Positions 25,801 through 55,262 of a DNA stretch of 57,851 nt are shown piece after piece. The stretch covers positions 1-57,851 of the IMG/VR virus record IMGVR_UViG_3300027840_000002. One strand, 5' to 3'. The notes beneath the pieces are model-generated. The model saw only the letters and a list, made by a program, of their open reading frames with translations. It was not told where the DNA came from and did not search any database. Both the position numbers and the translations under genes were made by a program. Numbering within the stretch: the stretch's first letter is position 1; every line of letters starts with the position of its first letter. The stretch is from a virus. Lineage: Duplodnaviria; Caudoviricetes.

Positions 25801-25862
25801 GTTGATTTTAACTGGTTGAGGTGCTACTCTCAGTCACTGGTAATACTGCGAGGCGTAACGGG

Positions 25863-26054
25863 ATGAACGAATATACACACAAAGGTTTATTTGCTTATTG
25901 CATTCCGGTGTATATTAAATTCGACCGGTTTAATATACCGCAGTTAGAAGGTCGCAATTATATTTGCGATAAATTATTAAGCGGTGCGTTGTACATATGG
26001 GAACGTTTTATTTATTCAGACTTCCCGATTGTTATTACAGGTGAATTAAAATGA
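25863..26054 (+). CDS. Hypothetical protein
   Basis: SD GAGG; ATGA overlap with terS. Confidence 0.6.
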   Translation: MNEYTHKGLFAYCIPVYIKFDRFNIPQLEGRNYICDKLLSGALYIWERFIYSDFPIVITGELK

Positions 26055-26668
26055 CAATTGACGAATTGAGAAATGAATTAGATCCGCTGGTCGCAAACTT
26101 TTGCGATTTATATATTCAGCGTGATATTAATTCGCTTTCTAATTCTGATATTGTTAAACAGGTTTGGCCTGATATTAACTGTCCCGGACAGAAAGCCGCA
26201 CGTTTATTAAAACGACCTGATGTTAATAATTATTTGATTGCTCGACAGACTGACATCTGTCAAAGCGTCGAGATGGGACTGGCTGAAATCCGTTTGCGAC
26301 TCGCACAGGATGTACGCGGCGTTCATGACCGTTTCCCGTACCTGGAGTGGCTACCCGTCCAGGATGAGAAGGGTCGCACTAAGTTCCTGCCGCACATTCT
26401 GTCTGTTGATGATATCCCGCCGGAAGATCGTCGTTACATCGCGATGCTGGAAGAATCAGACAACGGTTATTACGCCGTCACCCTGGTTGAGGACCTGCAG
26501 CCTAAAGACCGTAACAAAGCGTACGAAATGCTGATCCGCATGCAGGGCGGTTTTAACGACAACGTGAACCTGCATGCCAGCGTGCGAACCGTCACACCGG
26601 AAGATGTGGCTAATGCACATGACAGCAAAGAAGCGTGCGACCTGTATCAGCAGGCAATGAAAGGGTGA
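26051..26668 (+). CDS. Terminase small subunit
   Basis: FCDLY...AARLLKRPDV..YL N-terminal HTH, DR.KA.EML.R..G.F C-terminal motif; upstream of terL. Confidence 0.8.
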   Translation: MTIDELRNELDPLVANFCDLYIQRDINSLSNSDIVKQVWPDINCPGQKAARLLKRPDVNNYLIARQTDICQSVEMGLAEIRLRLAQDVRGVHDRFPYLEWLPVQDEKGRTKFLPHILSVDDIPPEDRRYIAMLEESDNGYYAVTLVEDLQPKDRNKAYEMLIRMQGGFNDNVNLHASVRTVTPEDVANAHDSKEACDLYQQAMKG

Positions 26669-26674
26669 CCATCG

Positions 26675-26751
26675 AAGCGTGCAGCGATGCACGTTTTTAT
26701 TTATACTAACTATAAAATAATTGTTGACGGTGCGTACGACTGTGATATCAT
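26675..26751 (+). promoter_or_regulatory. Terminator followed by an early sigma70 promoter
   Basis: CGTGCA-GCGA-TGCACG-T5, then TTGACG-16-TATCAT. Confidence 0.75.
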
Positions 26752-26784
26752 TACCTCAACGAAACGAAATTGAGGAATTGAAAA

Positions 26785-27314
26785 ATGGAAATGACCATCA
26801 TCAAACGTGCTAAAGACCTGACTAAAGGCGCTTTTAAATTAGGTTCAGTTGTTGATGTTGATACTGACGACATGGTTGTTTATCACAAAGGCTTAGAGTG
26901 GAAAGTTCGCAAAAATGAAGACGGTACTTACGCACTGTTAGACGGGAAGACTGTTTTTCAATAAGCGTGAGTTAAAGGTGCGTCACTTAAAATGAGGATC
27001 TATTGATGAATAAGACACTGAATGTTAAATCAATTCGCAACGGTGCTTTTAAGCAATCATTACCTGTTATTTTCGAAGGTCAAGTAAAAGACGGCGATGA
27101 TTTCCGCTTTGTAATCGCATCTACCGAAAGTGCTTCTTTCAAAGCCGATATTCGTAAAAGCTCGGGTTTACTAATCGGTCGCGGTGATGATGACTTTTTC
27201 AATCCCGATCACGCCGCCGTGTCGCCTGTTTTCCCGGTCTTACCTTACGATGACAAGAAAATCATCGCACAGCAATTGCGCGAGCTGGCTGATTGGTTTG
27301 ACTCTCAGGCGTGA
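26785..27314 (+). CDS. Two hypothetical genes inserted between terS and terL (26785-26964, ~27006-27314)
   Basis: Both have SD TGAGGA; 59 and ~102 aa. Confidence 0.7.
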
Positions 27315-27344
27315 TATACTCCCCTGACAGAACAGGGGAAAAAC

Positions 27345-29099
27345 ATGATAGATAAATCAACTTATGATGCCCTGCGTGACGCGGGGCTTTCACATTTCGA
27401 CGCCGTGTCATCAGCAGGTGGCGATCCGCGCGTATCGTATTTCTGGCCTCCTGACCACAAGTCAGAGGTTGAGCGCCGTCTGAGATTGCTGCAGCGTCTG
27501 CGCGCCGATCCGGTGTTAGCACGTGCAGCACACGTTCACTACAAACATAACCCGGTTGACTGGTGTCTTGACTGGGCGACAACGTACGATCCGCGTAACG
27601 CAACGCGCGGCCTGCCAACGCTTATGCCGTTCAGCATGTTTGAACGTCAGACAGATCTGATTAAATTCCTGCACAGCTGCGTACTCGATGAAGAGAACGG
27701 TCTTATCGAGAAAGCGCGTGATATGGGCGCGACGGTTGCCGCCTCAGCGTTCAGCGTCTGGCTGTGGCTGTACTGGCCTGGCGCTGCTGTCGGTTTTGGT
27801 TCGCGCAAGGAAGAACTCGTTGACCGCCTGGGTGACCCGAAAACGATATTTGATAAGCTGCGTTCCTGTATTAAAAATCTTCCGTCAGATCTGTTCTGGC
27901 CCAAAGGGTTCAACCCGGTTCAGCACATGACGTACATGAAAATTATCAACCCGGCTAACGGTGCAACGATCGCCGGCGAAGCGGGTGATAATATCGGGCG
28001 CGGTGGTCGTACGCTGATCTATTTCAAAGATGAGGCCGCACACTACGAACGCCCCGAACTGATTGAAGCGGCGCTGGGTGATAACACCAACGTTCAGATC
28101 GACATTTCATCAGTTAACGGTATGGGTAACGTTTTCCATCGCCGTCGCATGTCAGGATTTGAATGGAATCCTGGATGCACACCGCCGAAAGGTAAGACGC
28201 GTATATTTATCATGGACTGGAGCGACCACCCGGCTAAATCACAGGCCTGGTACGACGCACGTCGTCAGCGTGCTGAGGATGAAGGCCTGATGCACGTGTT
28301 CGCCCAGGAAGTCGATCGTGATTACAGTGCTGCTGTTGAGAATATACTGATCCCCGCTGCATGGGTGCAGTCCGCACGCGGTGCACATCTTAAACTCGGG
28401 TTATCACCATCGGGTAAACGCACTGCCGGGATGGACGTCGCTGATGGTGGCAGCGACGTGAACGCACTGTGTTTCATGCGCGGTGTGCTCGTAGAACACA
28501 TGGAGACGCTTGCAGGCGACGGTGATGACGCGTATTACGATTTCCACACGAAAGCCGCACAGCGTGGCGCCCATGAATTCTGGTACGACGTGACTGGCAT
28601 CGGGCGCGCTGCGAAAGTTGCTGCGAAGAACACAGATAACGCGATGCCGGTGTTTGCCTGGGTGCCGTCGGGTGCCGTCGTCAACCCGGCACAGTCCATT
28701 ATGGGCGAAACGGAAGACGATGTGACGCGCACGAACCGCGACCATTACGCCACGCTCAAAGCACAGGCCTGGTTCTATCTGCGCAGACGGTTCAAGAAAA
28801 CGTACGACTGGGTGAAAAACGGCATTGAGTGCGATCCGGACGATATTATCAGCCTGCCCGAAAAAGCAGTGTGGGTAGATAAGCTGGTCACCGAACTGGG
28901 TCAGGTAACGTACGGCTATCAGAACGGCGGCAAAGTCATCGTGAACAAAGCACCTGCCGGCACGAAGTCGCCGAACATGGCTGATGCCCTGGTGATTGCT
29001 GCTATGCAGCCTAAACCAAACGCTAAGGTCATTCGTCGTCGCACCACGCCGCACGCAGGTATCGTACAGTCAGGTGCCGGTAATTACGACGGTATGTAA
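27345..29099 (+). CDS. Terminase large subunit
   Basis: IEKARDMGAT Walker A region, YFKDEAAH Walker B, ISSVNG, nuclease GMDVA, SPNMADA. Confidence 0.95.
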   Translation: MIDKSTYDALRDAGLSHFDAVSSAGGDPRVSYFWPPDHKSEVERRLRLLQRLRADPVLARAAHVHYKHNPVDWCLDWATTYDPRNATRGLPTLMPFSMFERQTDLIKFLHSCVLDEENGLIEKARDMGATVAASAFSVWLWLYWPGAAVGFGSRKEELVDRLGDPKTIFDKLRSCIKNLPSDLFWPKGFNPVQHMTYMKIINPANGATIAGEAGDNIGRGGRTLIYFKDEAAHYERPELIEAALGDNTNVQIDISSVNGMGNVFHRRRMSGFEWNPGCTPPKGKTRIFIMDWSDHPAKSQAWYDARRQRAEDEGLMHVFAQEVDRDYSAAVENILIPAAWVQSARGAHLKLGLSPSGKRTAGMDVADGGSDVNALCFMRGVLVEHMETLAGDGDDAYYDFHTKAAQRGAHEFWYDVTGIGRAAKVAAKNTDNAMPVFAWVPSGAVVNPAQSIMGETEDDVTRTNRDHYATLKAQAWFYLRRRFKKTYDWVKNGIECDPDDIISLPEKAVWVDKLVTELGQVTYGYQNGGKVIVNKAPAGTKSPNMADALVIAAMQPKPNAKVIRRRTTPHAGIVQSGAGNYDGM

Positions 29100-29164
29100 A
29101 ATAATTATTGACAGCGTGAACGGTGCGTCGTATCGTAGCGCTGTCAATAACTGAGGAATGAATT

Positions 29165-29986
29165 ATGAAAGAACTGTTTGACGTTTTACTGACATTACGC
29201 TGTGTAGAGATCCATCTGACTTTAGAAAACTACAGCGTAACGTTCGTTCATGATGACGATGTTCACGTTACTCTCAGTCACCCTCACGCAAAAGGTCTGA
29301 CTGATGCTGTTAAAAAATTCATTAAGGAATAAATTATGAATAACGATCAGCATCTACGGTTACAAATGAAAGACAGGTTGATTTCTGAACTTCAAGAGCA
29401 TGCTGAAAAGATGATTTCAGGCATGGAATTATTAGAACATCAATGTGACGATCTGAAAAAGCAAGTGAAACGTCTTGAACACTTTAAGCAGGCCTATATG
29501 GAATGGAGCGATAAAACAGAATGGGTGCAGAATGACAGTCGGTTTCATGTACTTCTTCCGTGGGGTAAACATCGTGCAGATGTTCTCAAAGAATATATTG
29601 AACGTTTGGAAAAGAATTTATCAAACACGTTTTCAATTGAGGAATAAATCATGCTTAAGTGGTTAGCTAAATTCTTTGGATCAGCGGCTGATAAAATAAC
29701 AAATTACGTCTGGCCTGACTCACGTGAAATTGACTACACGTCGCAACGCTGGGGTCACGAATTACATATTGGCACATCGTGGAGCGCACAGAAAAAGTTT
29801 AATCTTACAGGTCATTATTTTGGTAGAGGTTTGCTTCACGACAAAGGTATCAACGAAGGTGATGTTCTACTTATCGCTATGAACGGTGGTAAAATCGGCA
29901 TGTTGCGGGTTTACAGCATCACCTGGTTCCGCGATCCGAACGATATGTTTTCAGCTACAGTAATGTTTGAAGGTGTGAAAGACTGA
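29165..29986 (+). CDS. Three hypothetical early genes (29165-29332, 29336-29647, 29651-29986)
   Basis: Downstream of TTGACA-17-TATCGT (29108-29136); each has an AGGA SD. Confidence 0.7.
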
Positions 29987-30056
29987 ACTATTTTTCAGAT
30001 TGACAGTGTAAAATAATTGAGTATAGTGTGTTTAAATTAAACGAGGAGATAGAGAT

Positions 30057-31837: not shown

Positions 31838-31888
31838 AATATGAGTAGTACGGTAACATGACGTGATCATTCACTCAGGGGAAATATC

Positions 31889-34546: not shown

Positions 34547-34559
34547 TTTATAAAAACTG

Positions 34560-34588
34560 TTGCGTGGCCGCAAGGATGGGGCTATATT
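34560..34588 (+). promoter_or_regulatory. Sigma70 promoter for the RNA cluster
   Basis: TTGCGT-17-TATATT with an A/T-rich upstream element. Confidence 0.75.
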
Positions 34589-34594
34589 CAGATT

Positions 34595-34930: not shown

Positions 34931-34938
34931 CATTATTC

Positions 34939-35005
34939 GGCCCTTTAGCTCAGCGGTTAGTTCATAATCGCCAGGGCACTGGTTCAAATCCAGTAAGGGT
35001 CACCA
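34939..35005 (+). pseudogene. tRNA-Ile2/Met(CAT)-derived gene with ~9-nt internal deletion
   Basis: Intact acceptor GGCCCTT/AAGGGTC-ACCA, T arm and TTCATAA loop. The 3' D strand and 5' anticodon strand are missing (67 nt). Confidence 0.8.
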
Positions 35006-35009
35006 ATTT

Positions 35010-35032
35010 AGTCGGGAAACCGACTTTTTATT
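35010..35032 (+). terminator. Intrinsic terminator closing the RNA cluster
   Basis: AGTCGG-GAAA-CCGACT plus T run. Confidence 0.8.
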
Positions 35033-35069
35033 AAACGTAGTGTAAAATAATTGACAGGAGTGTATATAA

Positions 35070-36196
35070 ATGTTTAACATGACTCTTCAGGAACTGTATG
35101 AGTTTTTAAAAATAGAAGGTTGTGAACTTCGAATAGGATTCGACTATCCGCGAGTGAATGAACTAACTTTAACCTGGCTAAATAAAAATAATAATAAGCA
35201 GTTTTCACGCAGATTCAGCACGTTTGAACTCGAAATGATGCGTGTACCAGAAAGTATGCTTGTTTACGCAAGAAGTCAGGCTGAGGAGTGCTTAAAGTGA
35301 TTAAACTGATCATATTTTTACGTAACGCTATTTTTATAACCTCGTTTGCATACTTTGTGTTGATTGCGTTTATTGGAGTTATGTCTTTTGTGTCATGGGA
35401 TATAAACTTGATAATTGATATGTTCCAATCACTTACATGGTATGGTTTCAGGGTAACTTTTCTTTTTTCAGCATTGATAAGTGTGGTAGTTACATATGTC
35501 AAGTATGAGGGGTGGTAATGAAACGTATCCTGATTTTCATGCTGCTATTCATATCGTCGCCAGTTTTTGCCGATGGCAACGTTATGGACATATGGGTGAC
35601 GAAGTATGCGCTGACACGCGGCGTAGAGCAGCACAAAGCGAAAGTATTCAGTAATGGTAAGCTGGCCGTGGTGGACAACACTTACTACCGTAACAGCGAA
35701 TTCTGGTACACCGCAGAAGATGCGCGTAACCAGGCGATCAAAATGAAACAGCAGCGAATCGACACACTGATCCGCGAACTGAAACGTCTACAGAGTAAGG
35801 AATTCAAATAATGCGTATTCGTCGTGAAAGTCTTGAAAAAACCACAGGTATGTCACCGGTCGATGTTCAGACTTACCTTAGCCGTGCCGCACGCATGGCG
35901 ATCGGTGAGGGTAAAAAAGTTGTACGCATCAGCCGCGTCTCTACAGATACGAAACTGCGTACCCGGCGCACCATTGATGAACTGGTGATATCATGATTAA
36001 GAAACGTCCCATTAAAGCTACCGATCTCCACGATGGTTTGCTGATTGATTTTGATGGTGCGGAACCAGCTATCATCCGTGATGTTCTTATCGGTAAAAAC
36101 ATGGTTGAATTCACGGCGAATGGTACAAAATTCGCTGTTGAACATGATGAACAGCTGGTGCAGGTTACCAGACTCACACTGGTGTGCGGTCAATGA
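35070..36196 (+). CDS. Five small hypothetical genes (35070-35300, ~35297-35518 membrane, 35518-35811 with signal-like N-terminus, 35811-35996, 35993-36196)
   Basis: Tightly coupled ORFs. Confidence 0.65.
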
Positions 36197-36459
36197 CCTG
36201 GGAAATCAAACATAAATCCGGTACGGTATTGTTCCGTACCGATAACATTGAAACAGCGCGCGACAGAGAGCGTGCGGGGTGGTGGGTAGTGAATGTAAAA
36301 TATCAAGAATTGACATCAAAAGCACTGGAGTGCGAGCAGAGTAAACTGTTTAAACAGGCTGCTAAAGCGTGGAGCAGTGCAGCAGGTGTTGCGCGAAATC
36401 CACTTAACGTAAACTGGTGTGAGGCACGCGCCGAAGCATGTAAAAAGAAATGTCGGTAA
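36193..36459 (+). CDS. ANR/PerC-like small regulator domain protein
   Basis: A.E.E....QA.KAW..A...A....N..WC..RA..C pattern. Confidence 0.6.
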   Translation: MTWEIKHKSGTVLFRTDNIETARDRERAGWWVVNVKYQELTSKALECEQSKLFKQAAKAWSSAAGVARNPLNVNWCEARAEACKKKCR

Positions 36460-37075
36460 TGCGTACCGACTTCCCGTACGATCTATATCTGCGACCTGTT
36501 GCTGTTCAGGTCGCTGCAAAACTGACGGTTTGTCCGCCGGTGATCGGAGAGAACATCTACATTTACTTTGAACACGGCAGCATGGAATACTGGGTGATGC
36601 ATGCCACGGAGGAACTGATTGCAGCTATTTCAGTAAACCTGTCATTACCGTACTGGGTAGCAATGCGTGAAACAGAATTCTGGTACAACCAGTTATCGTA
36701 TGCTCAGGCTTACAGTATGAACATTGATTATAAAATAGTCAGATCGTGGTACCCGAAAGGCAATGAATTGACAAACGAGGTATTACACTCATGAAAGTAA
36801 AGGATACCAGACTCGGAATCGAAAGGCTTGTCGATGGATCATTTTCACCGTTCGAATATCGAAAATGGTTGAATGCTGCCGAAAAAGCAATAGAAAATAT
36901 TGAAAATCTTGATTTCAGGCATGACAACTTTAGATGGATAAAAATAGAAAATGGGGAGCCTGTTTTTGCTAACGGGATTTTACCGGCTATAACCTTGAAG
37001 GATATTCATTTTCTTATAACTCGCGCACACGTATTTACTCAAATGCGCAGGATGATAGACCGATCTGTACACTAA
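36459..37075 (+). CDS. Two hypothetical genes (36459-36794, 36791-37075)
   Basis: TAATG/ATGA coupling. Confidence 0.65.
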
Positions 37076-37131
37076 CCCTATCGCTCTGTTACACTACGGG
37101 GAATATCAATGTGTAACGGAGCGCCCATCTG

Positions 37132-38484
37132 ATGGCTTCACAGAAACAGCCCGCAGGAGCATACAGCTACGGGCGTACCGCAAACAATGGCCTGATTCAG
37201 GTTGATGATGATTTCCTTCCAGCCTTACGCGGTGAATTGCGTAAACTCACGTTCCAGCAAATGTCACGTAATGATGAAACGCTGGGCGCACTGCGCACGC
37301 TGATCACTGCTGTGATGTTAACCGTACCGTGGGAAATGGATGCAGCAGAAGCTGACACGTCAAAAGAGTACGCCGATCTCGCTAAAAATATCGTAATCGA
37401 AAACATGGGTGACCCGGAAGATCCGTACCCTGGTGTATCTTTTAATGACTTCCTGCAAAATATTTACAGTACGTTTGAGTGGGGTTACAGCGTTTTTGAT
37501 GTCGTGACATATACTCGTCCCGATGGTCGTATCGGCATCAAAGAAATGATGATTATTGGACAGAACAGCGTTGAAGAATGGATGACCGATGATTTTGGTC
37601 GCGCCATTGCTGTTCGTCAGTTTGTACCGGTTGTGGGTATCAGTAAAATCATCACGCGTGATCGTTATGTCCACTTCATCAATCAGCCAAACTGCGGATC
37701 GCCGGAAGGTGAATCTATGTATCGATCCGCTTACAAGCCGTGGTTTTATAAAAAACGACTGCAGGAAATTGAGGCGGTACAGGCGGAGCGCGGAACAGGT
37801 TTACCAGTAGTCACCGTAGATGCACAGTTGAGTATTGACGCTGAGTCAGACGATCCGTTGATCAGCGGGCCGGCACGTGCTCTGATCGGCAGCTATCGCA
37901 AACTGGTCAGCGATATACGTTACAATAAAGAATCAGGTGTGGTTCTGTTCAGCAGTCCGTTCGAATCGACAGATGCGAATACCGGTCAGACCTCTTACAG
38001 CAACATCCGTACGGCTGAATTCCGTTTCGAAACACCTTCGCAGAGTAATGCCGTAAATCTTGATGCGGTCATTCGTCGCTATGATATCGCAATGGCGCGT
38101 ACCATACTGGCTGATTTCATGTTCCTGGGTACGAGCGGAAGCGGTGGTAACCGTTCACTGTCAGACAATAGCACATCAATGTTCCTGAAAGGTATTCAGG
38201 GGCGCCTGGAAAGCGTGGCATCAACGATTAACCGCCAGCTTATCCCGATGATCTGGAAACTAAACGGGTTACCTGATGAAATGCGACCTACTATCCGTGT
38301 CGGTACCGTGATGAAAGAGTCACTGACCACGCTGGGGACGTTCATTAGGGATCTGGCTGGTGCAGGTGCATTGACACCGGATGACGCGTTAGAAGGGTTC
38401 CTGCGCAGCGAGGGTGGGTTACCTGAAAAGTCTGACGAGTTGACCAGAGGTGCATTACCTTCACTCGATGATAACACCCCGTAA
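37132..38484 (+). CDS. Portal protein (DUF935-like)
   Basis: 450 aa; WGYSVFDV, SPEGES.YR.AY.PW.YK, ER..GLP, I.RYD..MAR.ILA.F, INRQLIP....LN. Confidence 0.9.
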   Translation: MASQKQPAGAYSYGRTANNGLIQVDDDFLPALRGELRKLTFQQMSRNDETLGALRTLITAVMLTVPWEMDAAEADTSKEYADLAKNIVIENMGDPEDPYPGVSFNDFLQNIYSTFEWGYSVFDVVTYTRPDGRIGIKEMMIIGQNSVEEWMTDDFGRAIAVRQFVPVVGISKIITRDRYVHFINQPNCGSPEGESMYRSAYKPWFYKKRLQEIEAVQAERGTGLPVVTVDAQLSIDAESDDPLISGPARALIGSYRKLVSDIRYNKESGVVLFSSPFESTDANTGQTSYSNIRTAEFRFETPSQSNAVNLDAVIRRYDIAMARTILADFMFLGTSGSGGNRSLSDNSTSMFLKGIQGRLESVASTINRQLIPMIWKLNGLPDEMRPTIRVGTVMKESLTTLGTFIRDLAGAGALTPDDALEGFLRSEGGLPEKSDELTRGALPSLDDNTP

Positions 38485-38497
38485 GGGGTGTTTTTAT
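38473..38497. terminator. Terminator after portal
   Basis: AACACCCC-GTAA-GGGGTGTT plus T run. Confidence 0.8.
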
Positions 38498-39922: not shown

Positions 39923-40486
39923 TCTGATCGTTCTCGCTGAAGACATGCGTAAAGAAGCACAAGGTTATCGGGGTCAGAATAACCATCAGCGTGCCGGCGG
40001 ACTGGAGCGGGCAGCAACGATGCTTGAGTCGCTACTCGCCCGTGAAATTCGCTACGTAGGCGGTGAGCAGGCCATCGAAGGTGATACAGTAATGTGTGGT
40101 GGCGAACAGTTTCGGGTCGATCGTATTGATTACCAGCACGGTGTGTTAAAATCATACATTGACCCGACAGGCTACGCAGCATCAAGCTGTGTTTTAATTT
40201 CGCGGGGGTGAATATGATCCGTGACGGCACTTACGATAATCGTTCTGCACAAATGCGTGAATACTGGATTGACGGTAACTGTTATGACTGTCACCCTGCT
40301 GTAATTATTAATGCTGCATGTGTAGAACAGCCTCATGCCGTAAAACCTTTCGGTTATTACCCCGAGGTGGTCTGGCAACCATCAGCATGGTTGTTACCAG
40401 ATACTGAAAGCCGGGTGATAAAATCGATAGTAACTATTGATGCATTCATTCACAGGATGATTAAAAGTGCCGGATCCGTATCCTAA
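39909..40486 (+). CDS. Two hypothetical genes (39909-40211, 40208-40486)
   Basis: Coupled ORFs with SD. Confidence 0.6.
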
Positions 40487-41396
40487 ACTCGCAAATAAAA
40501 CTGAAGCGGCTATATATGCCGCTTTAATCGATGTGTGGAAAGCTGTCCGCACGTCTTATTCCCTCAAAGAAATCGAGCAGATCTATCTTACATCCGGCGT
40601 ACCTGGTGTGATGGCGATGCTTGACAATCTTGATCCGCTGATCGCTAACCGACTGTCGCCGGTTCTGCAGTCGTCAATGATCGAGTCGGGACGTATAGTC
40701 ATTGAGATACTTCCGGCACTGGCTATAACCACGCCAGCCTGGTTGCCCGCCCTCAGCATCAGCGCATCTAATGCTGCTATGAGATATGAACTCGATCTGA
40801 TACGCCAGATCAGCGACACGACAAAAGCCGCTGTGAGACAGTCCGTAGTGGAAGCTGTTGCAACAGGTAAACCGCCTGCAGCGATCGCCAGGCAGTTCCG
40901 TAGCACACTGGGTATCACCGACGGTCAGCAGGTGTGGGTGAGTAATTATCGTAAAGCGCTTGAAAATGGCGATAAGAAAGCACTTACGTATGAACTGCGT
41001 GATAAACGCTTTGATGCATCAGTGCGCGCCGGCACACTATCACAGGATAAGATTGATACGTTGGTGCAACGTTACGAGGAAAAGCTCGTCATATACCGAT
41101 CTAAAGTTATTGCGCGCACAGAGTCATTACGCGCGGTTGAAATAGGTCAGTATGAAAGTGTACGGCAGGGGATGGATAACGGTAATATCGACCCAAATCT
41201 TGAAAAAGGATGGGTGACTACTAAAGATGGGCGTGAACGCGACTGGCATTACGACCTGTCAAACAAATGGGTAAATTTCAATGACTATTTTATCAATAGT
41301 CACGGTCAACTACTTTACCCACGCGATCCCAATGGTGCGTCCAGTAATACCGTTCAGTGCCGGTGCAGACTTCGTTACAGATTATCTACAAGCTGA
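40467..41396 (+). CDS. Head morphogenesis / minor head protein (Mu gpF / SPP1 gp7-like)
   Basis: R..VIARTE, K.W.T..D.RER..H, YPRDP......QCRC. Confidence 0.9.
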   Translation: MPDPYPKLANKTEAAIYAALIDVWKAVRTSYSLKEIEQIYLTSGVPGVMAMLDNLDPLIANRLSPVLQSSMIESGRIVIEILPALAITTPAWLPALSISASNAAMRYELDLIRQISDTTKAAVRQSVVEAVATGKPPAAIARQFRSTLGITDGQQVWVSNYRKALENGDKKALTYELRDKRFDASVRAGTLSQDKIDTLVQRYEEKLVIYRSKVIARTESLRAVEIGQYESVRQGMDNGNIDPNLEKGWVTTKDGRERDWHYDLSNKWVNFNDYFINSHGQLLYPRDPNGASSNTVQCRCRLRYRLSTS

Positions 41397-41815
41397 CGGA
41401 CCGTCGATTTAGGTAAATACATCACCTGAGCAATCTGATTAAACGACAGTCCGATATCTCTCAGACGTCGGGCTTCTTTCATATGGGCTGTGGTAAGTTT
41501 GTTGTATGGCTTTCGGTGATATGCAAGGTTAAGCCCGAGCACGTGAGCACGCATATTAACTGAAGCGTTAGTTTTACGGCAGGCAGCTGCGATCTGCGAT
41601 ACAGGGTGGTGACCTGCCATGTCGCGTAAGGTTGCATCCTGGCGTTCTGTCCAGCGTGATACACCTGCTGAGAAACGCACGCCCAGGGATCGGGCGCGGT
41701 TCTTCACACTGTTCAGATTCATACCTAACGCTTTAGCAACCTGACCACTCGTCATAGTGCTGACATTGCTGATAATGAACTGATCCTGCTCGTTAGTGAA
41801 TTTACGGTTTGTCAT
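41375..41815 (-). CDS. DNA-binding protein (two Myb/GcrA-like repeats plus HTH)
   Basis: FT.EQD...QVA.ALG....SV..RA..LG twice, then GLSFNQIAQVMYLPKSTV. Confidence 0.75.
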   Translation of the reverse strand: MTNRKFTNEQDQFIISNVSTMTSGQVAKALGMNLNSVKNRARSLGVRFSAGVSRWTERQDATLRDMAGHHPVSQIAAACRKTNASVNMRAHVLGLNLAYHRKPYNKLTTAHMKEARRLRDIGLSFNQIAQVMYLPKSTVRQLVDNL

Positions 41816-42093: not shown

Positions 42094-42610
42094 TTCTTTT
42101 CCTCTATGTGTTTTCAGTAAAGATAACATAACACAGAATTATTTTAATGTGTATTCGATTTAGTTATAACGAATAGATATTTTTGAAGTCACGGCTTAAG
42201 TACGATTTGTAATCTATCGTAACAAAACGTAACCTATCTATTTTAGTCATGCTTATCGGATTAGCTACCAGAAAATCACTAAAATTTAAGACCGCACTAA
42301 AAATGTCCGGTCGTTCGGGAAGTCTTGGGAGAGTAAGGTTGAATGCTATTTTTCCAAAACCCCGAACACGCCAAACTCCTTTTATAGTGATCTGATCCAA
42401 TTACATCACTACCTCCTTATCACTCTGTATTATGAATTTATTAAAAGTAAGGGGAGTAAGGGGGAAAGTCAGTAATGGCGCTAGGTCCCTTAACTGGTCG
42501 TACCACAAAACCTGTCAGGTATAAGGGGTTTCTAATATTACTATTAGTAAAACTAATACTGTTGCACTTGACAAAATGCAGTGATATTATTCTTCGCAGG
42601 AGGAAAACAC

Positions 42611-44214: not shown

Positions 44215-44216
44215 TC

Positions 44217-44603: not shown

Positions 44604-44618
44604 TAAGGGGATAATTAA

Positions 44619-45617: not shown

Positions 45618-45624
45618 ATTGATT

Positions 45625-45647
45625 AGCCCGCTTCGGCGGGCTTTTTA
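45625..45647 (+). terminator. Terminator after capsid gene
   Basis: AGCCCGC-TTCG-GCGGGCT-TTTT. Confidence 0.85.
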
Positions 45648-45936: not shown

Positions 45937-46056
45937 TTCGTAACCCTCACTGTTTAAACTGCATTCAGTCTATCATACCTGTGTACACCGTCAATAATTA
46001 TTTTAACCTATCAGATAAACCGCACAGGTTGTATACTATCTGACGGAGGTAACACG

Positions 46057-46437
46057 ATGGAAAACTTTAACCGTTTCAAACCTGTATTTGCCCGTTTCCC
46101 GTTCATGTTCAATGGTGAAAAGTACGAACCAGGCGATCTGTTCGAAGCTCAACCGCACATCGTTCAACGCATGTGGTTTGCGCGTAAACTGACACATATC
46201 GGCGAAGTGACAACTGACGAAGTGACAACTGACGAAGTGACAACTGACGAAGTGACAACTGACGAAGTGACAACTGACGAAGTGAGTGCTGTTAGCCTCG
46301 AACACACAGGTGCAGGCTGGTATAACGTACTCATGCACGGTGCGGTAATAAATCCTGAAAAAATCAAAGGTAAACAGAGAGCTGTTGATTGGGCTGTTGA
46401 AACACTCGGCGTTACTGCTGAAGATATCGAGGCATAA
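46057..46437 (+). CDS. Head-associated protein with (TTDEV)5 linker
   Basis: SD GGAGGT; position after the capsid gene. Confidence 0.65.
   Translation: MENFNRFKPVFARFPFMFNGEKYEPGDLFEAQPHIVQRMWFARKLTHIGEVTTDEVTTDEVTTDEVTTDEVTTDEVSAVSLEHTGAGWYNVLMHGAVINPEKIKGKQRAVDWAVETLGVTAEDIEA
46203..46285 (+). repeat. Perfect 15-bp tandem repeat, ~5.5 copies
   Basis: CGAAGTGACAACTGA repeated. Confidence 0.95.
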
Positions 46438-46439
46438 TT

Positions 46440-47676: not shown

Positions 47677-48092
47677 CAATTAATGATATTCGCGCGCTTA
47701 TCACCATGCGTCTGATTAACCTTGGTCTGTTAGTTGACGGAATGGAAATCGACGGTGAACAGTATGACCCTGGTGCTAATGATACCTGGGTGCGTATCAA
47801 CGTTCAGTTCAATACCGCAGCGATTACAACACTGGGCGGTGAAGGTGTGCCACGTCGGCGCGATCGCATAGGTACAGCTTACATCAACGTGTTTACGCCG
47901 CTTAAAGGTCAAAGCGTTTACGATAATGATGAACTGTGCGAACAGATTTTGCAGGGCTTCGAAGGGGTATGGCAGGATCCGTGTATCCGGTACGGTCAGC
48001 CAACCGGGGTACGTGTTGAAAGCAGTGGACGCGATGATAACTGGTGGTTACAGACAGTTGTGGTACCTTTCACCGCAGAGACAGTAAGATAG
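47673..48092 (+). CDS. Tail terminator protein (putative)
   Basis: WVR...R.G...INVFTP.G, W....V.VPF; position. Confidence 0.7.
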   Translation: MTINDIRALITMRLINLGLLVDGMEIDGEQYDPGANDTWVRINVQFNTAAITTLGGEGVPRRRDRIGTAYINVFTPLKGQSVYDNDELCEQILQGFEGVWQDPCIRYGQPTGVRVESSGRDDNWWLQTVVVPFTAETVR

Positions 48093-48114
48093 CCCGCTTC
48101 TGCGGGCTTTTTAT

Positions 48115-48549
48115 TTATTTCCCCGTTGACCCGAAACCGCCCGTACCGCGCTCAGTTTCAGTGAGTGTTTCGACGATGTTCAGCGTGACACGCGTTACCG
48201 GCAGTATCATTGCCTGGGCGACACGATCGCCTTTCTGCAGGTTGTCCAGAATTTCCTGACCGGCAGTGGAATCAGCTCGCAGTTTTACGCGCACTTCGCC
48301 GCGATAATCACTGTCGATCACACCAACAGCATTACTCAGGCTGATATCATATTTGAAACCGTGACCTGAACGACTGAATACCAGCATTACATGGTTGTCA
48401 GGAATTTCAAACGACAGTCCGGTACCACAGTCGGCGTTACCATAATCGTCATAACGGATCTGGCCGTCAGTGGCGATATCAAAACACGCTGCACCGGCTG
48501 ATGCATAGAAAGGTACGGTTGCATTTTCGTTTAATAGTTTGATGTTCAT
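48115..48549 (-). CDS. dut: dUTPase (trimeric)
   Basis: AACFD, SRSG, GVIDSDYRGE, RVAQ, RGTGGFGSTG. Confidence 0.95.
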   Translation of the reverse strand: MNIKLLNENATVPFYASAGAACFDIATDGQIRYDDYGNADCGTGLSFEIPDNHVMLVFSRSGHGFKYDISLSNAVGVIDSDYRGEVRVKLRADSTAGQEILDNLQKGDRVAQAMILPVTRVTLNIVETLTETERGTGGFGSTGK

Positions 48550-48593
48550 TAACGGATCTCAAAAGTGAAAGCCCGCCGAAGCGGGCAGTTTTA

Positions 48594-48779
48594 TTAACGA
48601 TGGATACGTGACTGGAAAAAGGTATCAAGTTTCAGATAACCGTTTGCCAGCATATCCTGTTTACCTGGGCGGGACATACGCTTAACTGATGCTTTGGTAA
48701 CTTTGTTGCTGCGTGCTTCAGAAGATGCTGCGCGACGTTCTTTACGTGAAGGACCGAATACAGTTTTGATGAATTTCAT
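48594..48779 (-). CDS. Small basic hypothetical protein
   Basis: Promoter TTGACG-17-TATATT; SD AAGGT; Arg/Lys-rich. Confidence 0.6.
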   Translation of the reverse strand: MKFIKTVFGPSRKERRAASSEARSNKVTKASVKRMSRPGKQDMLANGYLKLDTFFQSRIHR

Positions 48780-48928
48780 TTTATTTACCTTTATCATGCC
48801 GGACACCATGTCCTGCTCTGAAAATGAATATACGTCAGTTAAAATACATCGTCAACAATTATTTTAACCTATCGTGAAATTAGTCTAAGTGGTACAATTT
48901 TACAGCAACCAACTCATGAGGAATTACC

Positions 48929-50362: not shown

Positions 50363-50393
50363 AAGTAAAAACCCGCACGGATGCGGGTTAGAT

Positions 50394-51184
50394 TTATTTC
50401 TGTTTTCTTTTTTCAGCGTAATATTTATTTTTACCTTTCTTCAGCGCTTCCGTTCTGCTTTTAGCGATTACCCGACATGTCCAACCATCCATATAATCGG
50501 CTTCAGTTCCACCGCTGTCCCAGCTACCGGATAAATATCGACCTACTACCCACTCTTTTTCCATCTTTTCAATCCTCATTTGTTTACGTTCACGTCAATC
50601 ATTTTAACGCCGGGGATTTTACCAGCTTCGATGGCTTCAATGGTTTTCTCTGCTACAGGTCGGGTGAACACACCGAGAGAAAGAAGCGACGTGATTGCCG
50701 ATTCGCGCTTGCGATCCGTTTCGGTGCGGAAAGTAAATTCCGACCCTAGGAGATGAACAGCCGCACCGTCAGCAAAACCAAACGCTATCCCGTTTGATAC
50801 ACCAACACATTCAAAAAGAAACCATTCAGCAGAAGATGCATAATTGTATTTCGCTTTACATTTTACCCCAACAGGCGGCAATCCCTCACCATTCCAAGCT
50901 GGCTGTTGTACTGCAATGGCGGCTTCGTATTGTTCTCGGGTGACGATCGCCGTAGCATAGTCTTCAGGTTCATCACATTTAAAATTTACCCCCGGTATCC
51001 AGAACGCTTTTTCCTCAGCGCCGTCACAAGTGTGTATTGAAAGAATGTCACCTTTGAAACCGGGCGTGCCGTTTTCAGTGAAGTATACTCCACCCCTATT
51101 TATGTTGTAACCTGCGTGAGATGCACGCTCCGGCCACTCACCTCGATCTGGCAGCTCTTTAACCAGCAATTCTAAAAGTGTCAT
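50394..51184 (-). CDS. Two antisense hypothetical genes (50394-50564, 50576-51184)
   Basis: Promoter TTGACT-17-TAAAAT; WNGEGLPPVG..C motif in the larger gene. Confidence 0.7.
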
Positions 51185-51292
51185 TTCTCAATCCTCAGTT
51201 GTTTACGTTAACGTGAATTATTTTAACCGTTGCTATCATGTAAGTCAATACTGTAAAATAAATATTATTCACATGTACGGAGCAACATTTTA

Positions 51293-52041
51293 ATGAAAAT
51301 TCCTTCATCCTTACTTTCCAGCTTTGACCGCAATGAAACGGCACAGATTGAACTGTCCCATGGCTTCACAGTAACCCTGTGTGAAAACAACGTGACTAAC
51401 CCTATGTGGGGTAAGCGTGCGCGTGAGTTCATTCAGGCTAACCCTGACCACCCGGCTGCAGGCGATAAGTTTAGCGAGTTCATTCGCGATCTGCGTCAGA
51501 ACATTACTCAAGCTGAAAGTACGGATTTTATCGCTGATGTGCTGATTGTTGACTGGCAGTCCGATGAGTTGAAATACACTGCTAAAAACGCACGCGAACT
51601 GCTGCGTAAACTGCCGCGAATGGCCGATAACATTCTGTTACATTCATCTATTGAATCAAATTACCGTAACGCTGAGGTTGAGCAGGCAGTGGGGGAATAA
51701 CAGCACTGCTACTGTGGACAGGCGAGAAACAAAATGATACCGATAATGACTGGATCAGAAAACTCGCATCACGGCGTAAAGTAGCAGTGCCTGAAGTTGC
51801 GGCTGAAAAAGCCGGCGAAGCGCCAGATATCCGACCTCAGTTCATGCCGTGGTTCAACGCGTATATGGAACTCGCCACATGCCGCACAGAGCGCCGAATG
51901 ATACCTTGGACAGATATAGCTAAATATGCTGAGGTTTACGGCTTACCGCTTGAAACACTTCGTCGTATAGTAAGGCGTGTTGATGCCGCAGTGCAGGCTG
52001 ATAACGATAAGAATAACCGTAAACTGATCAAGCCCCATTAA
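51293..52041 (+). CDS. Tail assembly chaperone (51293-51700) with -1 frameshifted extension to 52041
   Basis: G GGG GAA TAA at 51691-51700; the -1 frame is open through the 84-aa ORF; lies between tube and tape measure genes. Confidence 0.85.
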
Positions 52042-52379
52042 GGGGCTTTTTTCATCAGTCTTACTTGCAGATTGTAACCTGCCGTCATCGCATCATCAGT
52101 AAGCGAAATGACTTTTTTGTTATTACCTGTCGCGTACTTTTTCGCCACGTCGATGTTTTCACGATACGAATCGTACTCCCATGTGTGGCGCGAATGGTAC
52201 ATCCCACGCCCTTTCTGACAAGCATCCTGAACAACCTGGTTATTACGATCGTTAAACGGCAGATCGTATTTAGCCATCACAACTGTTGCGATCGACTGGC
52301 AGTCAGGAAGATTGTTCAGTTCATCGTTACTGTCACAGCCGACCAGCAGCAAGCACATTAAACCTATAACTGTTTTCAT
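52038..52379 (-). CDS. Lipoprotein (superinfection-exclusion candidate)
   Basis: MKTVIGLMCLLLVG-C lipobox; own sigma70 promoter. Confidence 0.7.
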   Translation of the reverse strand: MKTVIGLMCLLLVGCDSNDELNNLPDCQSIATVVMAKYDLPFNDRNNQVVQDACQKGRGMYHSRHTWEYDSYRENIDVAKKYATGNNKKVISLTDDAMTAGYNLQVRLMKKAP

Positions 52380-52466
52380 TTACATAACCCTCAATTATTT
52401 TAACCTGACGCTATTTAAACGCATACTGTACAATGTGTCAATACTTTTATAAAGCGAGATTAGGCG

Positions 52467-55262
52467 ATGGCAATCGGTATTGAAATTGCACTTGACCCCA
52501 GCAATGTTGTTAACGGCGCTAACCAGGTTGACAAAGCACTTGACGGGATCGGCAACTCTGCGGACAACGTTCAGAAAAAAACTGATACGATGGGTGAGGC
52601 CATGCTTGCGGCTCTCACAAAGCAGCAGAAAGCTACGCAACAGATGCTGGCGAATGCTCAGGCAACTAAAGCTGTCGCCCAGGAGCAATCACGCCTGCTC
52701 GCCTCTCAGTCATCACTGAATAGCAGTTCAGCACAGTCTGAGGCGCGACAGAAAGAATATCAGCGTTTAAGTGCACAGATTAAACAAGCGGTGCAGCAGG
52801 AAGCGCAGGCTAAAAAAGAACTGGCGTCAATAAATAAATTACTTTCGGGACAGAAATTACCAGAACCTCAATCTTATACGCGAACCGAACAGGCTGTAAA
52901 CGGTATAGCAACAGCAGGTAAAGCATTACTGGCGTTAGGGCTTGCGTCAAAGCTTGCACAGTGGGGCACAGCTTTTGTTGAGGTTGCGGACAACGTAAAC
53001 CTTCTGCAGTCGCGCATCTCTCTGTACACCAAATCTCAGCAGGAAACAAACGCTGTATTTGCTCAGTTACAGGCCATTTCTAACAGTGCCGGTGTGAGCC
53101 TCCAGGATACAGCGGGAACGTTTGCACGATTCGCCTCCGCCGGCAAAGATATGGGCGTATCTAACGATCAGGTTCTTAAATTGATCGGCAACTTGCAAAC
53201 GATGGCGCGTGTATCTGGCGCATCCACACAAGAAGCGTCAGCTGCTATTTACCAACTTAGTCAGTCATTCGCGTCAGGCAGGCTGCAGGGTGACGAATTC
53301 AGATCTGTATCTGAACAACTGCCTGTGGTTCTTGACACACTGGCGAAAAAGCTCGGTGTGACACGCGGTGAACTTCGTCAGATGGCAACTGACGGTAAGT
53401 TGAACAGCGACACACTGCTGCTGCTGGCCGGTGATTTTGCTGAACTCGATGCCCAGGCCGCTAAATTGCCGCGTACTGTTGACCAGGCGTCACAATCGCT
53501 GATGAACAACCTGGCTGCAGCTGCTGATGCGCTGAACGATAAGCTGGGAGTGACGGGGGGACTGGCTAAAGCGATTGACAGCGTTTCGTCATCGCTCGGT
53601 GACTGGGTTAAACAGTCTGAAGGTACATACGGCGAGGTTGACAGATTAAATCGCGTGGTACGCGATGCGGAAGGTGATCTGGCTATGTATCAGCGTCGTC
53701 TGGAATTTATTCCATCTGATACGGTTTGGGGTAAGTCGATCCAGAAAGACATTGACGACACTAAAGCTAAAATCGCATCTGCTAACATGGAACTCCAAGC
53801 GTATACACGCTTGATGACTACAGTAAGTAATTTTTCAGCAGATGTTGCAAAAATCACTGCGCCACCTATTGCGAAAAAAGATGATGCTCAGGCGCAGAAA
53901 ACTATTAATAGTCTGCAAGAGCAACTACAGTACACTGATGCGCTTAAAAAAGGCAACTATGAACTGGCTGCTTCTATCAAACTCGGTACTGATGCTACAG
54001 CGAACCAGGTTTCAGCATATGCAATACTGTTGAAACAGCAGACAGACGTTAAGAATGAAAAAACAGCATCTGCAAAAGCATCACGCGAAGCTACATCCGA
54101 GGCTGAACGCGAACAGAAACAGTTAGAACGCAATCAGGCTGCTAATCAGAAATACATTAAAACACTGACCGATAAAACCACAGCCGGTACGTATGATGTT
54201 CAGCGTGCAAAAGAAATGGTTGCACAGTCATTACGCCAGGGTCAGTCTGTCGATGAACTGAGCGCATCATATCTTAAATCTATTCAGGTTCAGAACCAGC
54301 TTACCCTTGCATCACAACAAACCGAAGCGCAATCGCGCCTGAATAAAGATGCAACAGATGCTGAAAAACAGGCTGTCGATCAGTACGTGGCGTCGCTTTA
54401 TCAACAACAACAGGCGAAACAGCTTGCGGCGCAGGTTTCACAGATCTCCACAGATACAACAAATGAACTGAATCCTGTTCAGGGTCAGATGGACCAGATT
54501 GCACAACAGGAAGCTCAGCGGCTGGCAATTCTTGAACAGGCTCGACAGCAGGATCTTTTGAACGAACAGCAGTACCAGCAACTTAAAACACAAACACAAC
54601 AGTCCGGTGAACAGCAGCGTAACGATCTGTTAACTCAGAACAATGCTATGTTGCTCGGGGCTACCAGTGACTTGTTCGGTGGGATCGCCGATACGTTGAA
54701 ACAATCTCAGGGTGAACAGTCAAGTATCTATAAAGCGATGTTTGCGGCCAGTAAAGCATTTGCGATCGCCCAGGCGTCAGTGCTGCTGTGGCAGAACGTC
54801 AGTAAAGCGATGGCTGTTGGCTTCCCACAGAACATACCGTTTATTGCGGCTGCTTTCGCACAGGGTACGTCTATTCTCGGAAGTCTCTCATCTATCGCTG
54901 CTACAGGCTTCGCAACGGGTGGTTACATCACCGGTGCAGGTACAGGTACCTCTGACAGCATTCCCGCCCGTTTAAGCGCAGGAGAATACGTTATGCCCGC
55001 GCAGCAAACCCGTCAGTACCGTAATGAACTGGCAGCAATGCGCGCAGGTACGTATAACGGTCAGGGTCAGGGTGGAGGTATGTCGGTACAGGTTGCAAAC
55101 TACGGTAACGATAATGTGACCACTCAACAACTTGATGAAAATCGTGTAAGATTGATCATCGGTGAAGAGGTTCCTCGAGTTAATGCAGCTGAGTTTAATA
55201 ACCCGTACAGTCAGACGAATAAAGCTTATCGCTCAAACTACAACGCAGAGAGGAAAGTGTGA
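52467..55262 (+). CDS. Tape measure protein
   Basis: 931 aa, QLSQ..ASG.LQGDEFRSV.EQ tape domain, FATGGY..G.GT..SDSIPARLS.GEYV. Confidence 0.95.
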   Translation: MAIGIEIALDPSNVVNGANQVDKALDGIGNSADNVQKKTDTMGEAMLAALTKQQKATQQMLANAQATKAVAQEQSRLLASQSSLNSSSAQSEARQKEYQRLSAQIKQAVQQEAQAKKELASINKLLSGQKLPEPQSYTRTEQAVNGIATAGKALLALGLASKLAQWGTAFVEVADNVNLLQSRISLYTKSQQETNAVFAQLQAISNSAGVSLQDTAGTFARFASAGKDMGVSNDQVLKLIGNLQTMARVSGASTQEASAAIYQLSQSFASGRLQGDEFRSVSEQLPVVLDTLAKKLGVTRGELRQMATDGKLNSDTLLLLAGDFAELDAQAAKLPRTVDQASQSLMNNLAAAADALNDKLGVTGGLAKAIDSVSSSLGDWVKQSEGTYGEVDRLNRVVRDAEGDLAMYQRRLEFIPSDTVWGKSIQKDIDDTKAKIASANMELQAYTRLMTTVSNFSADVAKITAPPIAKKDDAQAQKTINSLQEQLQYTDALKKGNYELAASIKLGTDATANQVSAYAILLKQQTDVKNEKTASAKASREATSEAEREQKQLERNQAANQKYIKTLTDKTTAGTYDVQRAKEMVAQSLRQGQSVDELSASYLKSIQVQNQLTLASQQTEAQSRLNKDATDAEKQAVDQYVASLYQQQQAKQLAAQVSQISTDTTNELNPVQGQMDQIAQQEAQRLAILEQARQQDLLNEQQYQQLKTQTQQSGEQQRNDLLTQNNAMLLGATSDLFGGIADTLKQSQGEQSSIYKAMFAASKAFAIAQASVLLWQNVSKAMAVGFPQNIPFIAAAFAQGTSILGSLSSIAATGFATGGYITGAGTGTSDSIPARLSAGEYVMPAQQTRQYRNELAAMRAGTYNGQGQGGGMSVQVANYGNDNVTTQQLDENRVRLIIGEEVPRVNAAEFNNPYSQTNKAYRSNYNAERKV

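Follow-up and report, generated by a model that had tools for sequence, protein, structure and literature searches.

The window analysed here, a stretch of 57,851 bp that makes up the whole virus record IMGVR_UViG_3300027840_000002 (completeness rating 100%), belongs to a siphophage distantly akin to Salmonella phage 9NA, whose closest named relative is Enterobacter phage Mulvp2 (tail tube protein identity of 70% to Mulvp2 and 44-46% to Klebsiella and Salmonella 9NA-like siphophages). Replication genes occupy the first 25 kb and, according to PHROGs, the plus strand carries terS, terL and the genes for portal, head morphogenesis, scaffold, major head, neck, tail tube, chaperones and tape measure, with short minus-strand blocks (dUTPase, helix-turn-helix proteins, unknowns) between the structural genes. 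No sigma factor or RNA polymerase gene turned up in PHROGs scans of 89 open reading frames (ORFs) of the window, and transcription is therefore taken to use the host enzyme. Our subject is the leaders of eight plus-strand genes (terL, portal, ORF 25863, 42611, 46057, tail tube 48929, chaperone 51293 and tape measure 52467), for which the initial annotation had proposed a single genome-wide lock, namely a late -10 box set in a hairpin that buries the Shine-Dalgarno (SD) sequence. For two of them, terL and portal, folding and comparison with relatives make a lock of the kind described for phage T4 plausible.

Leader hairpins of terL and portal

Both genes lie at the end of a run of small genes (terminators and promoters are pattern-scan matches throughout, and gene starts stem from heuristic calls and a manual list). 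Ahead of terL, a canonical plus-strand promoter at 26714-26751 (AAAATAATT, a G, TTGACG, 16 nt and TATCAT with a TG before the -10) directly follows the terS terminator (26674-26697) and leads into terL by way of genes 26785 and 27006, no plus-strand terminator match intervening. Upstream of terL lies an extended -10 box, TGATATACT (27312-27320, plus strand), which the initial annotation had correctly read as GTGA-TATACT (27311-27320) and whose TGA is the stop codon of ORF 27006-27314. It is abutted by the terL leader hairpin, TCCCCTG-6-CAGGGGA on the plus strand at 27320-27339, the 3' arm of which is the SD (27333-27339) for the ATG at 27345; taken alone, this hairpin has a predicted energy of -11.7 kcal/mol.

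Upstream of portal, a terminator (35010-35025) and then a promoter-like TGTAAAATAATTGACA (together 35010-35056, plus strand) head nine small plus-strand genes (35070-37075) that run into portal, and between 35041-35056 and portal there is no plus-strand terminator match. The portal leader itself holds a plus-strand hairpin (37082-37123) with a 13-bp stem, CGCTCTGTTACAC / GTGTAACGGAGCG, and a 16-nt loop. Inside its 5' arm is an extended -10, TGTTACACT (37087-37095, plus strand), with the hexamer TACACT at 37090-37095, and its 3' arm contains the SD GGAG (37118-37121), followed by the ATG at 37132. Stem and hexamer are as the initial annotation had given them.

When each of the eight leaders was compared with 200 dinucleotide shuffles, terL (z = -3.71, 0/200 shuffles folding as well) and portal (z = -3.59, 1/200) proved more stable than shuffled sequence, which as a general claim for all eight did not hold: z-scores are -2.01 for 46057 (5/200), -1.31 for chaperone 51293 (22/200), -1.03 for 42611 (28/200), -0.02 for tape measure 52467 (85/200), +0.35 for tail tube 48929 (119/200) and +1.13 for 25863 (177/200). 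We further calculated the free energy needed to make the SD (a fixed window from -13 to -5) single-stranded in a long RNA, which begins 70 nt upstream of the presumed start site, and in a short RNA, which begins at that site, i.e. the 7th nt after the hexamer; 300 dinucleotide shuffles of the upstream part alone served as control, and the energies are equilibrium predictions for start sites that are assumed, not mapped. Opening takes 8.4 kcal/mol in the long and 0.2 in the short RNA at terL, and 11.4 and 3.8 at portal, the long value being reached by a fraction of 0.007 of the shuffles at either gene. The corresponding figures (long, short, shuffle fraction) are 7.3, 1.6 and 0.030 for the chaperone gene, 5.4, 0.4 and 0.157 for 42611, 7.4, 0.6 and 0.160 for 46057, 4.3, 3.1 and 0.343 for 25863, 4.0, 1.2 and 0.473 for tape measure, and 3.2, 3.8 and 0.860 for tail tube.

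With the SD set by anti-SD pairing, portal gives 10.3 (long) vs 1.3 kcal/mol (short). Its long RNA stays at 10.3-12.8 kcal/mol for an upstream reach of 70-250 nt (a 40-nt reach removes the 5' arm), that of terL at 6.9-13.2 kcal/mol over 40-250 nt, and the short RNAs of both genes need at most 1.5 kcal/mol for starts at least 4 nt after the hexamer. Ranked by SD closure among 90 gene starts folded from -90 to +20 (median 3.5 kcal/mol), portal is 1st and terL 5th; 46057 comes 9th, 42611 32nd, chaperone 38th, tape measure 46th, tail tube 53rd and 25863 56th. Only at terL and portal is the SD paired in a stable long-RNA helix; 25863, 42611, 48929 and 52467 lack such pairing, and at 46057 and 51293 it is marginal and unconserved. 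A read-through RNA that is closed to ribosomes and a short one that is open, as envisaged by the initial annotation for all eight leaders, are hence predicted for terL and portal but not for the other six. Rfam (gathering threshold; E <= 1) has no known RNA family at any of the leaders.

Relatives available for comparison were Mulvp2, four IMG/VR contigs (G001, 57 kb and complete; G002, 41 kb; G003, 18.5 kb; G005, 6.9 kb) and one metagenome contig (L055) spanning the portal leader, which amounts to 4-5 sequences per leader class. Protein-seeded scans of viral contigs gave 1 locus for tail tube, 3 for portal and 16 for terL, with five contigs only as close relatives; the terL matches at 47-51% identity have unrelated, often GC-rich leaders. 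Two portal loci came from the metagenome scan, the leader being covered only by L055, and a DNA scan with the 3' portal arm returned, among the matches listed (80 of 101), three relatives already known, the rest being chance-like.

At terL, GTGATATACTCCCCT...AGGGG or, with the start codon, cGTGATATACTCCCCT...AGGGG...ATG is kept in 5/5 genomes, with upstream flanks and upstream ORFs that are unrelated between lineages. In four of the five, the TGA of the box serves as stop codon of upstream ORFs of three unrelated kinds, and the stem has at least 6 pairs in each. Closure of the terL SD is significant in the window (p = 0.013) and is matched by 0/150 shuffles in both Mulvp2 and G001. Portal SD closure is significant in 4/4 genomes (p <= 0.007; the start of two orthologues was 3 nt off in this test, and the same SD was found), and the portal arms, CGCTCTGTTACA / TGTAACGGAGCG, are invariant in 5/5 sequences, with variation in the loop and both flanks and one extra stem pair in the window and L055. 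That these two hairpins go beyond chance and are conserved is what remains of the eight claimed, the other six being shuffle-like or absent from orthologous leaders.

Some further observations concern the same cassettes. An exact-match scan with a 15-mer of the terL cassette yielded 34 loci, mostly chance-like. Three unrelated families of IMG/VR contigs (L074/L079, L078 and L085) have the exact 15-mer and, within ~35 nt downstream of it, AGGGGG or AGGGGA plus a start codon, and other phages may therefore also combine a -10 box with an anti-SD arm. In Mulvp2 (L001 5282-7691; record ~19281-21690), the terL cassette and the first terL codons precede an annotated HNH homing endonuclease gene, behind which stands an annotated full-length terL; judging from this order, the terL 5' end appears to be duplicated around a homing-endonuclease insertion. 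Finally, among the matches listed, two points where contigs of a relative (DNA run X5) start to align with the window, 27310 and 37069, fall on the left borders of the terL and portal cassettes, a hint of mosaic boundaries that would coincide with promoter boxes.

The other six leaders and a conserved 13-mer

At these leaders, too, every hexamer and arm quoted in the initial annotation is in place, so that its reading of the letters was accurate at all eight sites. Before 42611, the extended -10 TGATATTAT and then a weak hairpin of 5-6 bp (TTCTTC/GAGGAA at 42590-42605, preceded by GTGA-TATTAT) occupy 42582-42605 on the plus strand; the TGn of this box is conserved in 4/4 clade genomes and present also in 9NA and VLCpiS10a, and the hairpin is neither significant nor conserved. 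The label 'protease' for 42611 comes down to a weak XkdF-type peptidase match of 19.9 bits, below the cutoff of 24. For ORF 25863, the claimed TACTCT box and leader (25825-25862, plus strand) show no sign of a hairpin, and a tblastn search of 5 relatives brought up no homologue of the ORF. TGn-extended -10 boxes are found at terL, portal, 42611, tail tube and head morphogenesis, but not at 46057, 51293 and 52467, where a TG abuts the hexamer directly. The weak -35 noted early on at the structural restarts is borne out, as the promoters of structural genes are TG-containing -10 boxes with a poor -35. At head morphogenesis gene 40467, the extended -10 is TGATAAAAT (40416-40424), which lies inside the upstream ORF, 42 nt before the GTG start and without a hairpin; TATAAT-like boxes occupy the equivalent place in Mulvp2, G001 and G002.

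The four tail-side genes share an exact 13-mer, AATTATTTTAACC, at 45996, 48857, 51216 and 52393 (four copies, all on the plus strand; with up to 2 mismatches there are 15 matches vs 2.3 expected). It lies 23, 23, 25 and 23 nt, respectively, before the hexamers TATACT, TACAAT, TAAAAT and TACAAT: at 45996-46008 with TATACT at 46032-46037 before 46057; at 48857-48869 with TACAAT preceded by TGG (48890-48898) before tail tube; at 51216-51228 with TAAAAT at 51254-51259 before chaperone; and at 52393-52405 with TACAAT at 52429-52434 before tape measure (the whole part spans 52393-52441). At the orthologous sites of Mulvp2, G001, G002 and G003 the 13-mer is exact, with the G003 chaperone site, where a consensus TTGACA-18-TAAAAT takes its place, as sole exception. 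Pairwise identity is 100% in the 13-mer vs 37-68% in the 23-nt spacer, and it is in these poorly conserved promoter spacers that the 5' arms claimed for the four sites fall (arms and -10-like boxes at 46006-46049, 48868-48921, 51229-51286 and 52404-52464). By eye, the window arms at 46057, 51293 and 52467 are not complementary in the relatives; the 46057 hairpin (46006-46049) is marginal in the window and unconserved, and the best fold of the tail tube leader leaves the SD unpaired. Across the five classes 42611, 46057, tail tube, chaperone and tape measure, 0/18 orthologue tests outside the window fell below 0.05.

Each tail-side site comes after a strong intrinsic plus-strand terminator and then an antisense gene block. 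The terminator ahead of 46057 follows the major capsid gene (45625-45642); those ahead of 48929, 51293 and 52467, at 48091-48108, 50370-50389 and 52030-52048, close structural blocks, as does another at 38473-38492. Little read-through RNA should therefore reach these four sites.

The 13-mer is also placed next to promoters that point the other way. A canonical minus-strand promoter, TTGACG-16-TAGACT (45967-45994), abuts the copy at 45996, and its twin, TTGACG-17-TATATT (48855..48827, minus strand), adjoins the copy at 48857, and one element would therefore sit at about -43 of both divergent promoters, where the minus-strand promoter too would have its UP element. The chaperone site is overlapped by a conserved minus-strand promoter, TTGACT-17-TAAAAT (51248..51220), whose -10 lies within the 13-mer and is made by its reverse strand, and just downstream at the tape measure site a conserved GTGTCAATA is a TTGACA -35 if read on the minus strand. 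Moreover, the A/T block of the canonical cassette, (TA)TAAAATAATT-n-TTGACR-17-TAnnnT, which occurs ~70 nt before gene starts at 22946(-), 26714(+), 29098(+), 39260(+), 46004(-) and 48865(-), is the 13-mer read on the other strand. With so many overlapping promoter elements of both strands packed into them, the tail-side intergenic regions are a sufficient source of partial inverted repeats. A core of the element, GTCAAGAATTATTTTAA, precedes terL, portal, gp29/pfk and chaperone genes in 9NA and VLCpiS10a as well, so that its conservation extends to phages sharing only ~45% identity in their tail tube proteins; among 9NA-like phages, the rrnB-like 13-mer (see below) marks promoter regions cleanly and with deep conservation. 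Of the papers listed by full-text searches, none seemed from its title or abstract to deal with these motifs, the 9NA-like genomics paper being outside that coverage. TTAACC of the 13-mer was considered as a -35 hexamer and dismissed, a spacing of 23 nt being too long. Two further copies of the A/T block are seen in other registers as GTGTAAAATAATT (30000-30027 and 35040-35056), one in the spacer of TTGACA-16-TATAGT (11/12 matches) and the other fused to TTGACA, and the block may therefore also act as a TGTAAAAT-type -10 box.

Elsewhere in the window, two small proteins with tandem helix-turn-helix motifs are encoded on the minus strand at 21506-21811 and 41375-41815, both classed by PHROGs as 'D5-like transcriptional regulator' and the former matching Pfam Sigma70_r4 (31.8 bits, cutoff 24.1); both are candidates for recognising the conserved promoter motifs. 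Perfect DnaA-box 9-mers (TTATCCACA, minus strand) at 25745, 25756 and 25784, the sole zero-mismatch copies in the window, sit within 12-nt direct repeats, AGCTGTGGATAA, and adjoin (AT)n and an A/T-rich stretch (25574-25660). This region (25561-25800) separates the leftward early block from that of terS and has the look of an origin dependent on host DnaA or of a site that titrates DnaA. The two largest intergenic regions each hold a copy, at 25660-25690 and 42445-42475, of a G-rich element, AAAGTAAGGGGAGTAAGGGGG(A/T)...GTCAG; Mulvp2 and G001 keep it ahead of their 42611 orthologue (L001 ~19640-19680; L046 ~10490-10530), and its reverse complement resembles an anti-SD sequence. The minus-strand gene adjoining it (42164-42400) has rank 2/90 in SD closure. 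A short tRNA-like sequence (34939-35002, plus strand; Rfam tRNA 34 bits, cutoff 29; no call by ARAGORN) lies directly before the terminator at 35010-35025, and relatives may have a full tRNA there, as a consensus with loose ends suggests.

Readings of the terL and portal hairpins

We envisage that the structural genes are split into many transcription units that would use host RNA polymerase and that would be restarted in two ways. At terL and portal, a small-gene operon with a canonical UP-like/-35/-10 promoter would run into the structural gene without a terminator, and a conserved hairpin would pair the SD with an anti-SD arm that abuts (terL) or contains (portal) the TGn-extended -10. In read-through RNA the ribosome site should, by prediction, stay closed, and RNA begun ~7 nt after the internal -10 would lack the 5' arm and hence be open. 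Tail-side restarts (46057, 48929, 51293, 52467), placed after a terminator and an antisense block and with no meaningful hairpin, would instead rely on a -10 without a good -35, 23-25 nt downstream of the UP-element look-alike AATTATTTTAACC. As terL and portal are reached without a terminator and the tail-side sites lie behind terminators, the two convincing hairpins coincide, by prediction from the sequence, with the points at which transcripts of a consensus promoter should run on into a virion gene. Taken together, a T4-like lock at terL and portal with none at the other six sites is the reading we lean towards, with modest confidence, and we infer from it that the internal boxes fire, that transcription begins within or directly behind the 5' arm and that the long RNA is poorly translated in the cell.

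A number of points speak against this reading. The energies leave out co-transcriptional folding and ribosomes on upstream ORFs. Two terL orthologues do not follow suit, G002 being not significant (p = 0.71) and G005 borderline (p = 0.067). Covariation in related phages, which the initial annotation had put forward as a check, is not significant for terL, where one compensatory pair (G-C in 2 sequences, C-G in 1, an unpaired C.C in 2) is scored as high by 297/500 shuffles, and is not seen at all for portal, where the stem shows no variation among 5 sequences; for the latter none is expected because the 5' arm would double as TGn -10 box and the 3' arm as SD. Two other junctions of promoter-driven blocks have no lock, namely those of the tailspike gene 31889 (3.9 kcal/mol) and of head morphogenesis gene 40467 (mostly ~2 kcal/mol, 1.6-6.8 depending on the length folded). 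An extended -10 does not in itself make a promoter late, and for low-copy proteins such as portal and terminase a constitutive damping hairpin would look identical. Finally, TGnTAnnnT has 50 copies on the plus strand of 25800-57851, and even though 10 were observed 5-60 nt before a start where ~3.7 are expected (42 plus-strand starts; 7.3% of positions eligible), the nearness of a -10-like box to a start codon carries little weight by itself.

How, then, do other explanations fare? That all eight restarts share the lock, letting the genome tolerate early promoters among its structural genes, can draw on the eight sequence patterns being where they were said to be, on canonical promoters that are indeed scattered over both strands of the structural region and on the marginal signal of 46057 in the window (z = -2.01, rank 9/90). 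Yet six of the eight hairpins lie within shuffle range or are unconserved, the orthologue tests of five classes all failed outside the window, the tail tube fold makes no SD contact, and the four tail-side sites have their 5' arms in spacers of 37-68% identity and lie behind strong terminators and antisense blocks. Nor would the internal boxes be 'late' by kind, since they are host sigma-70-type extended -10 boxes rather than the T4-type TATAAATA and the 89 ORFs include no phage sigma factor or RNA polymerase that was found. Tolerance of scattered promoters through an eight-site lock is thus contradicted by folding and comparative tests and, to our minds, barely credible; the claim is mostly pattern-matching on sequence dense in promoter elements, and the main outcome for systematic, genome-wide use is negative. 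The main rival, in which the hairpins would damp translation of terL and portal, two low-copy proteins, on every transcript and the -10-like boxes within are unused, deserves more attention. Phages require far smaller copy numbers of portal and large terminase than of capsid or tail tube protein, the strong and conserved SD closure fits such dampers equally well, and with two other read-through junctions devoid of hairpins, these track the gene rather than the type of junction. What dampers leave unaccounted for is that TGATATAC, albeit outside the terL stem, is invariant in 5/5 genomes where loop and post-stem bases vary, that homology between relatives starts exactly at the terL box despite unrelated upstream genes, and that portal has a proper TGn and TAnnnT in register. 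Moreover, in 9NA and VLCpiS10a, where terL and portal follow divergent gene blocks, long and short RNAs are about equally open (1.7 vs 1.2, 4.1 vs 2.5, 7.2 vs 6.6 and 1.9 vs 2.3 kcal/mol), which argues against a gene-intrinsic need for a damper. On balance we find dampers rather unlikely.

The position of the stop codons raises the option that the hairpins are devices for translational coupling, in which a ribosome ending the upstream ORF would melt the stem and license initiation at terL or portal: the TGA of the terL box terminates an upstream ORF in 4/5 genomes (with ORFs of three unrelated kinds) and the stem begins 5 nt later, while the portal stem of the window begins 6 nt after the upstream stop. 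Coupling of this sort is improbable, however, as the portal stem is 13-16 nt away from the stop in Mulvp2, G001 and G002 and G002 has no ORF ending at the terL TGA, the hairpins being kept all the same; besides, a terminating ribosome should reach at most the first 1-3 base pairs of the stem (going by ribosome footprint sizes), and the invariance of TATAC would go unexplained. Invariant arms without covariation are, on the other hand, what one would expect of a protein-binding site, and with two helix-turn-helix proteins encoded by the phage (21506-21811 and 41375-41815, both minus strand), the inverted repeats might be DNA-level regulator sites on internal promoters, with the RNA hairpin as a by-product. 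Against this, the terL and portal palindromes share no sequence and differ in spacing (7-6-7 vs 13-16-13), and one regulator can therefore not serve both; that the 3' arm is exactly the SD in each is unpredicted by a DNA-site model, and arm invariance is equally expected from second jobs as -10 box and SD. We regard regulator sites as very improbable. Two other roles were considered for the hairpins and rejected, that of an intrinsic terminator as no U-run follows on either strand, and that of an RNase III site as stems of 7 and 13 bp are short by comparison with the substrates of that enzyme.

A broader picture, in which we have little confidence, would see the clade as relying on host polymerase alone and following a two-tier code, with consensus UP-like/-35/-10 promoters for accessory genes and TG/-10 boxes without -35 for virion genes. 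The T4 trick would then have evolved independently at the tier junctions (terL, portal), and the 13-mer would be a shared bidirectional site for docking or switching polymerase, possibly read by a helix-turn-helix protein resembling sigma region 4, that passes polymerase from leftward accessory to rightward virion promoters. By analogy with T4 AsiA or P23-45 gp39, a switch in promoter class might possibly be brought about by an anti-sigma region 4 factor.

Comparison with known systems

The closest likeness of the 13-mer is to the UP element of Escherichia coli rrnB P1. Its AATTATTTTAA agrees at every base with an 11-nt run within the UP sequence AGAAAATTATTTTAAATTTCCTCA given by PMC3035448 and bioRxiv 10.1101/2020.06.05.136721, and like an UP element it lies directly upstream of the -35 position and abuts TTGACR in the canonical cassettes. 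Unlike the rrnB element, that of the phage is centred at about -43 rather than -50, with 25 nt from TTTTAA to the -10 vs 30 in the rrnB P1 sequence printed there; it occurs in both orientations and, at two sites, between divergent promoters, and the flanking CC of the 13-mer is invariant, which an A/T-tract site would not need. We therefore speak of an UP-element look-alike and, going by this resemblance, of a putative site for the alpha C-terminal domain of polymerase.

The promoters of the structural genes, TG-containing -10 boxes with poor -35, and those of the small genes, with consensus TTGACR, also recall phage programmes that dispense with the -35. T4 AsiA and gp39/gp76 of Thermus phage P23-45 switch host polymerase to extended -10 promoters without -35. 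No AsiA-like or gp39-like protein was identified in the window, although no search was aimed at them.

With 9NA, VLCpiS10a and Mulvp2 the window shares a mosaic layout in which structural genes are broken by opposite-strand blocks. The terL and portal genes of 9NA and VLCpiS10a, however, show no lock, and hairpin cassettes are seen in the Mulvp2-like clade only. For the annotation of mosaic phages one would thus predict a lock where a small-gene operon enters a virion gene and none behind a terminator and antisense block.

The T4 precedent invoked by the initial annotation is real. In the passages of PMC3014915 on genes e, soc, 49 and I-TevI, the SD is described as base-paired with a 5' strand whose coding sequence coincides with the promoter -10 or directly follows it, such that transcripts from upstream promoters carry both arms and those from the internal promoter are without the 5' arm. 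By prediction, the terL and portal leaders have this very geometry, and their consensus-like TGn and -10 boxes, candidate promoters in the right register, are invariant in the relatives. They differ from T4 in the genes concerned (terL and portal rather than lysozyme, decoration protein and homing endonuclease) and in the promoter, which in T4 is the gp55-dependent late promoter TATAAATA, absent at both the terL and the portal site, and here would be the sigma-70-type TGn boxes TGATATACT and TGTTACACT. Lacking a late promoter of the kind served by a phage sigma factor, terL and portal would share the working principle of the T4 lock but belong to a different system. If so, each cassette would be a compact, portable part of ~35-60 nt that uncouples translation from upstream transcription, in that read-through RNA is silenced and only RNA from the hairpin-buried promoter is translated; and should mapping of 5' ends confirm it, the T4 solution would have arisen in an unrelated siphophage that makes do with sigma-70-type promoters only.

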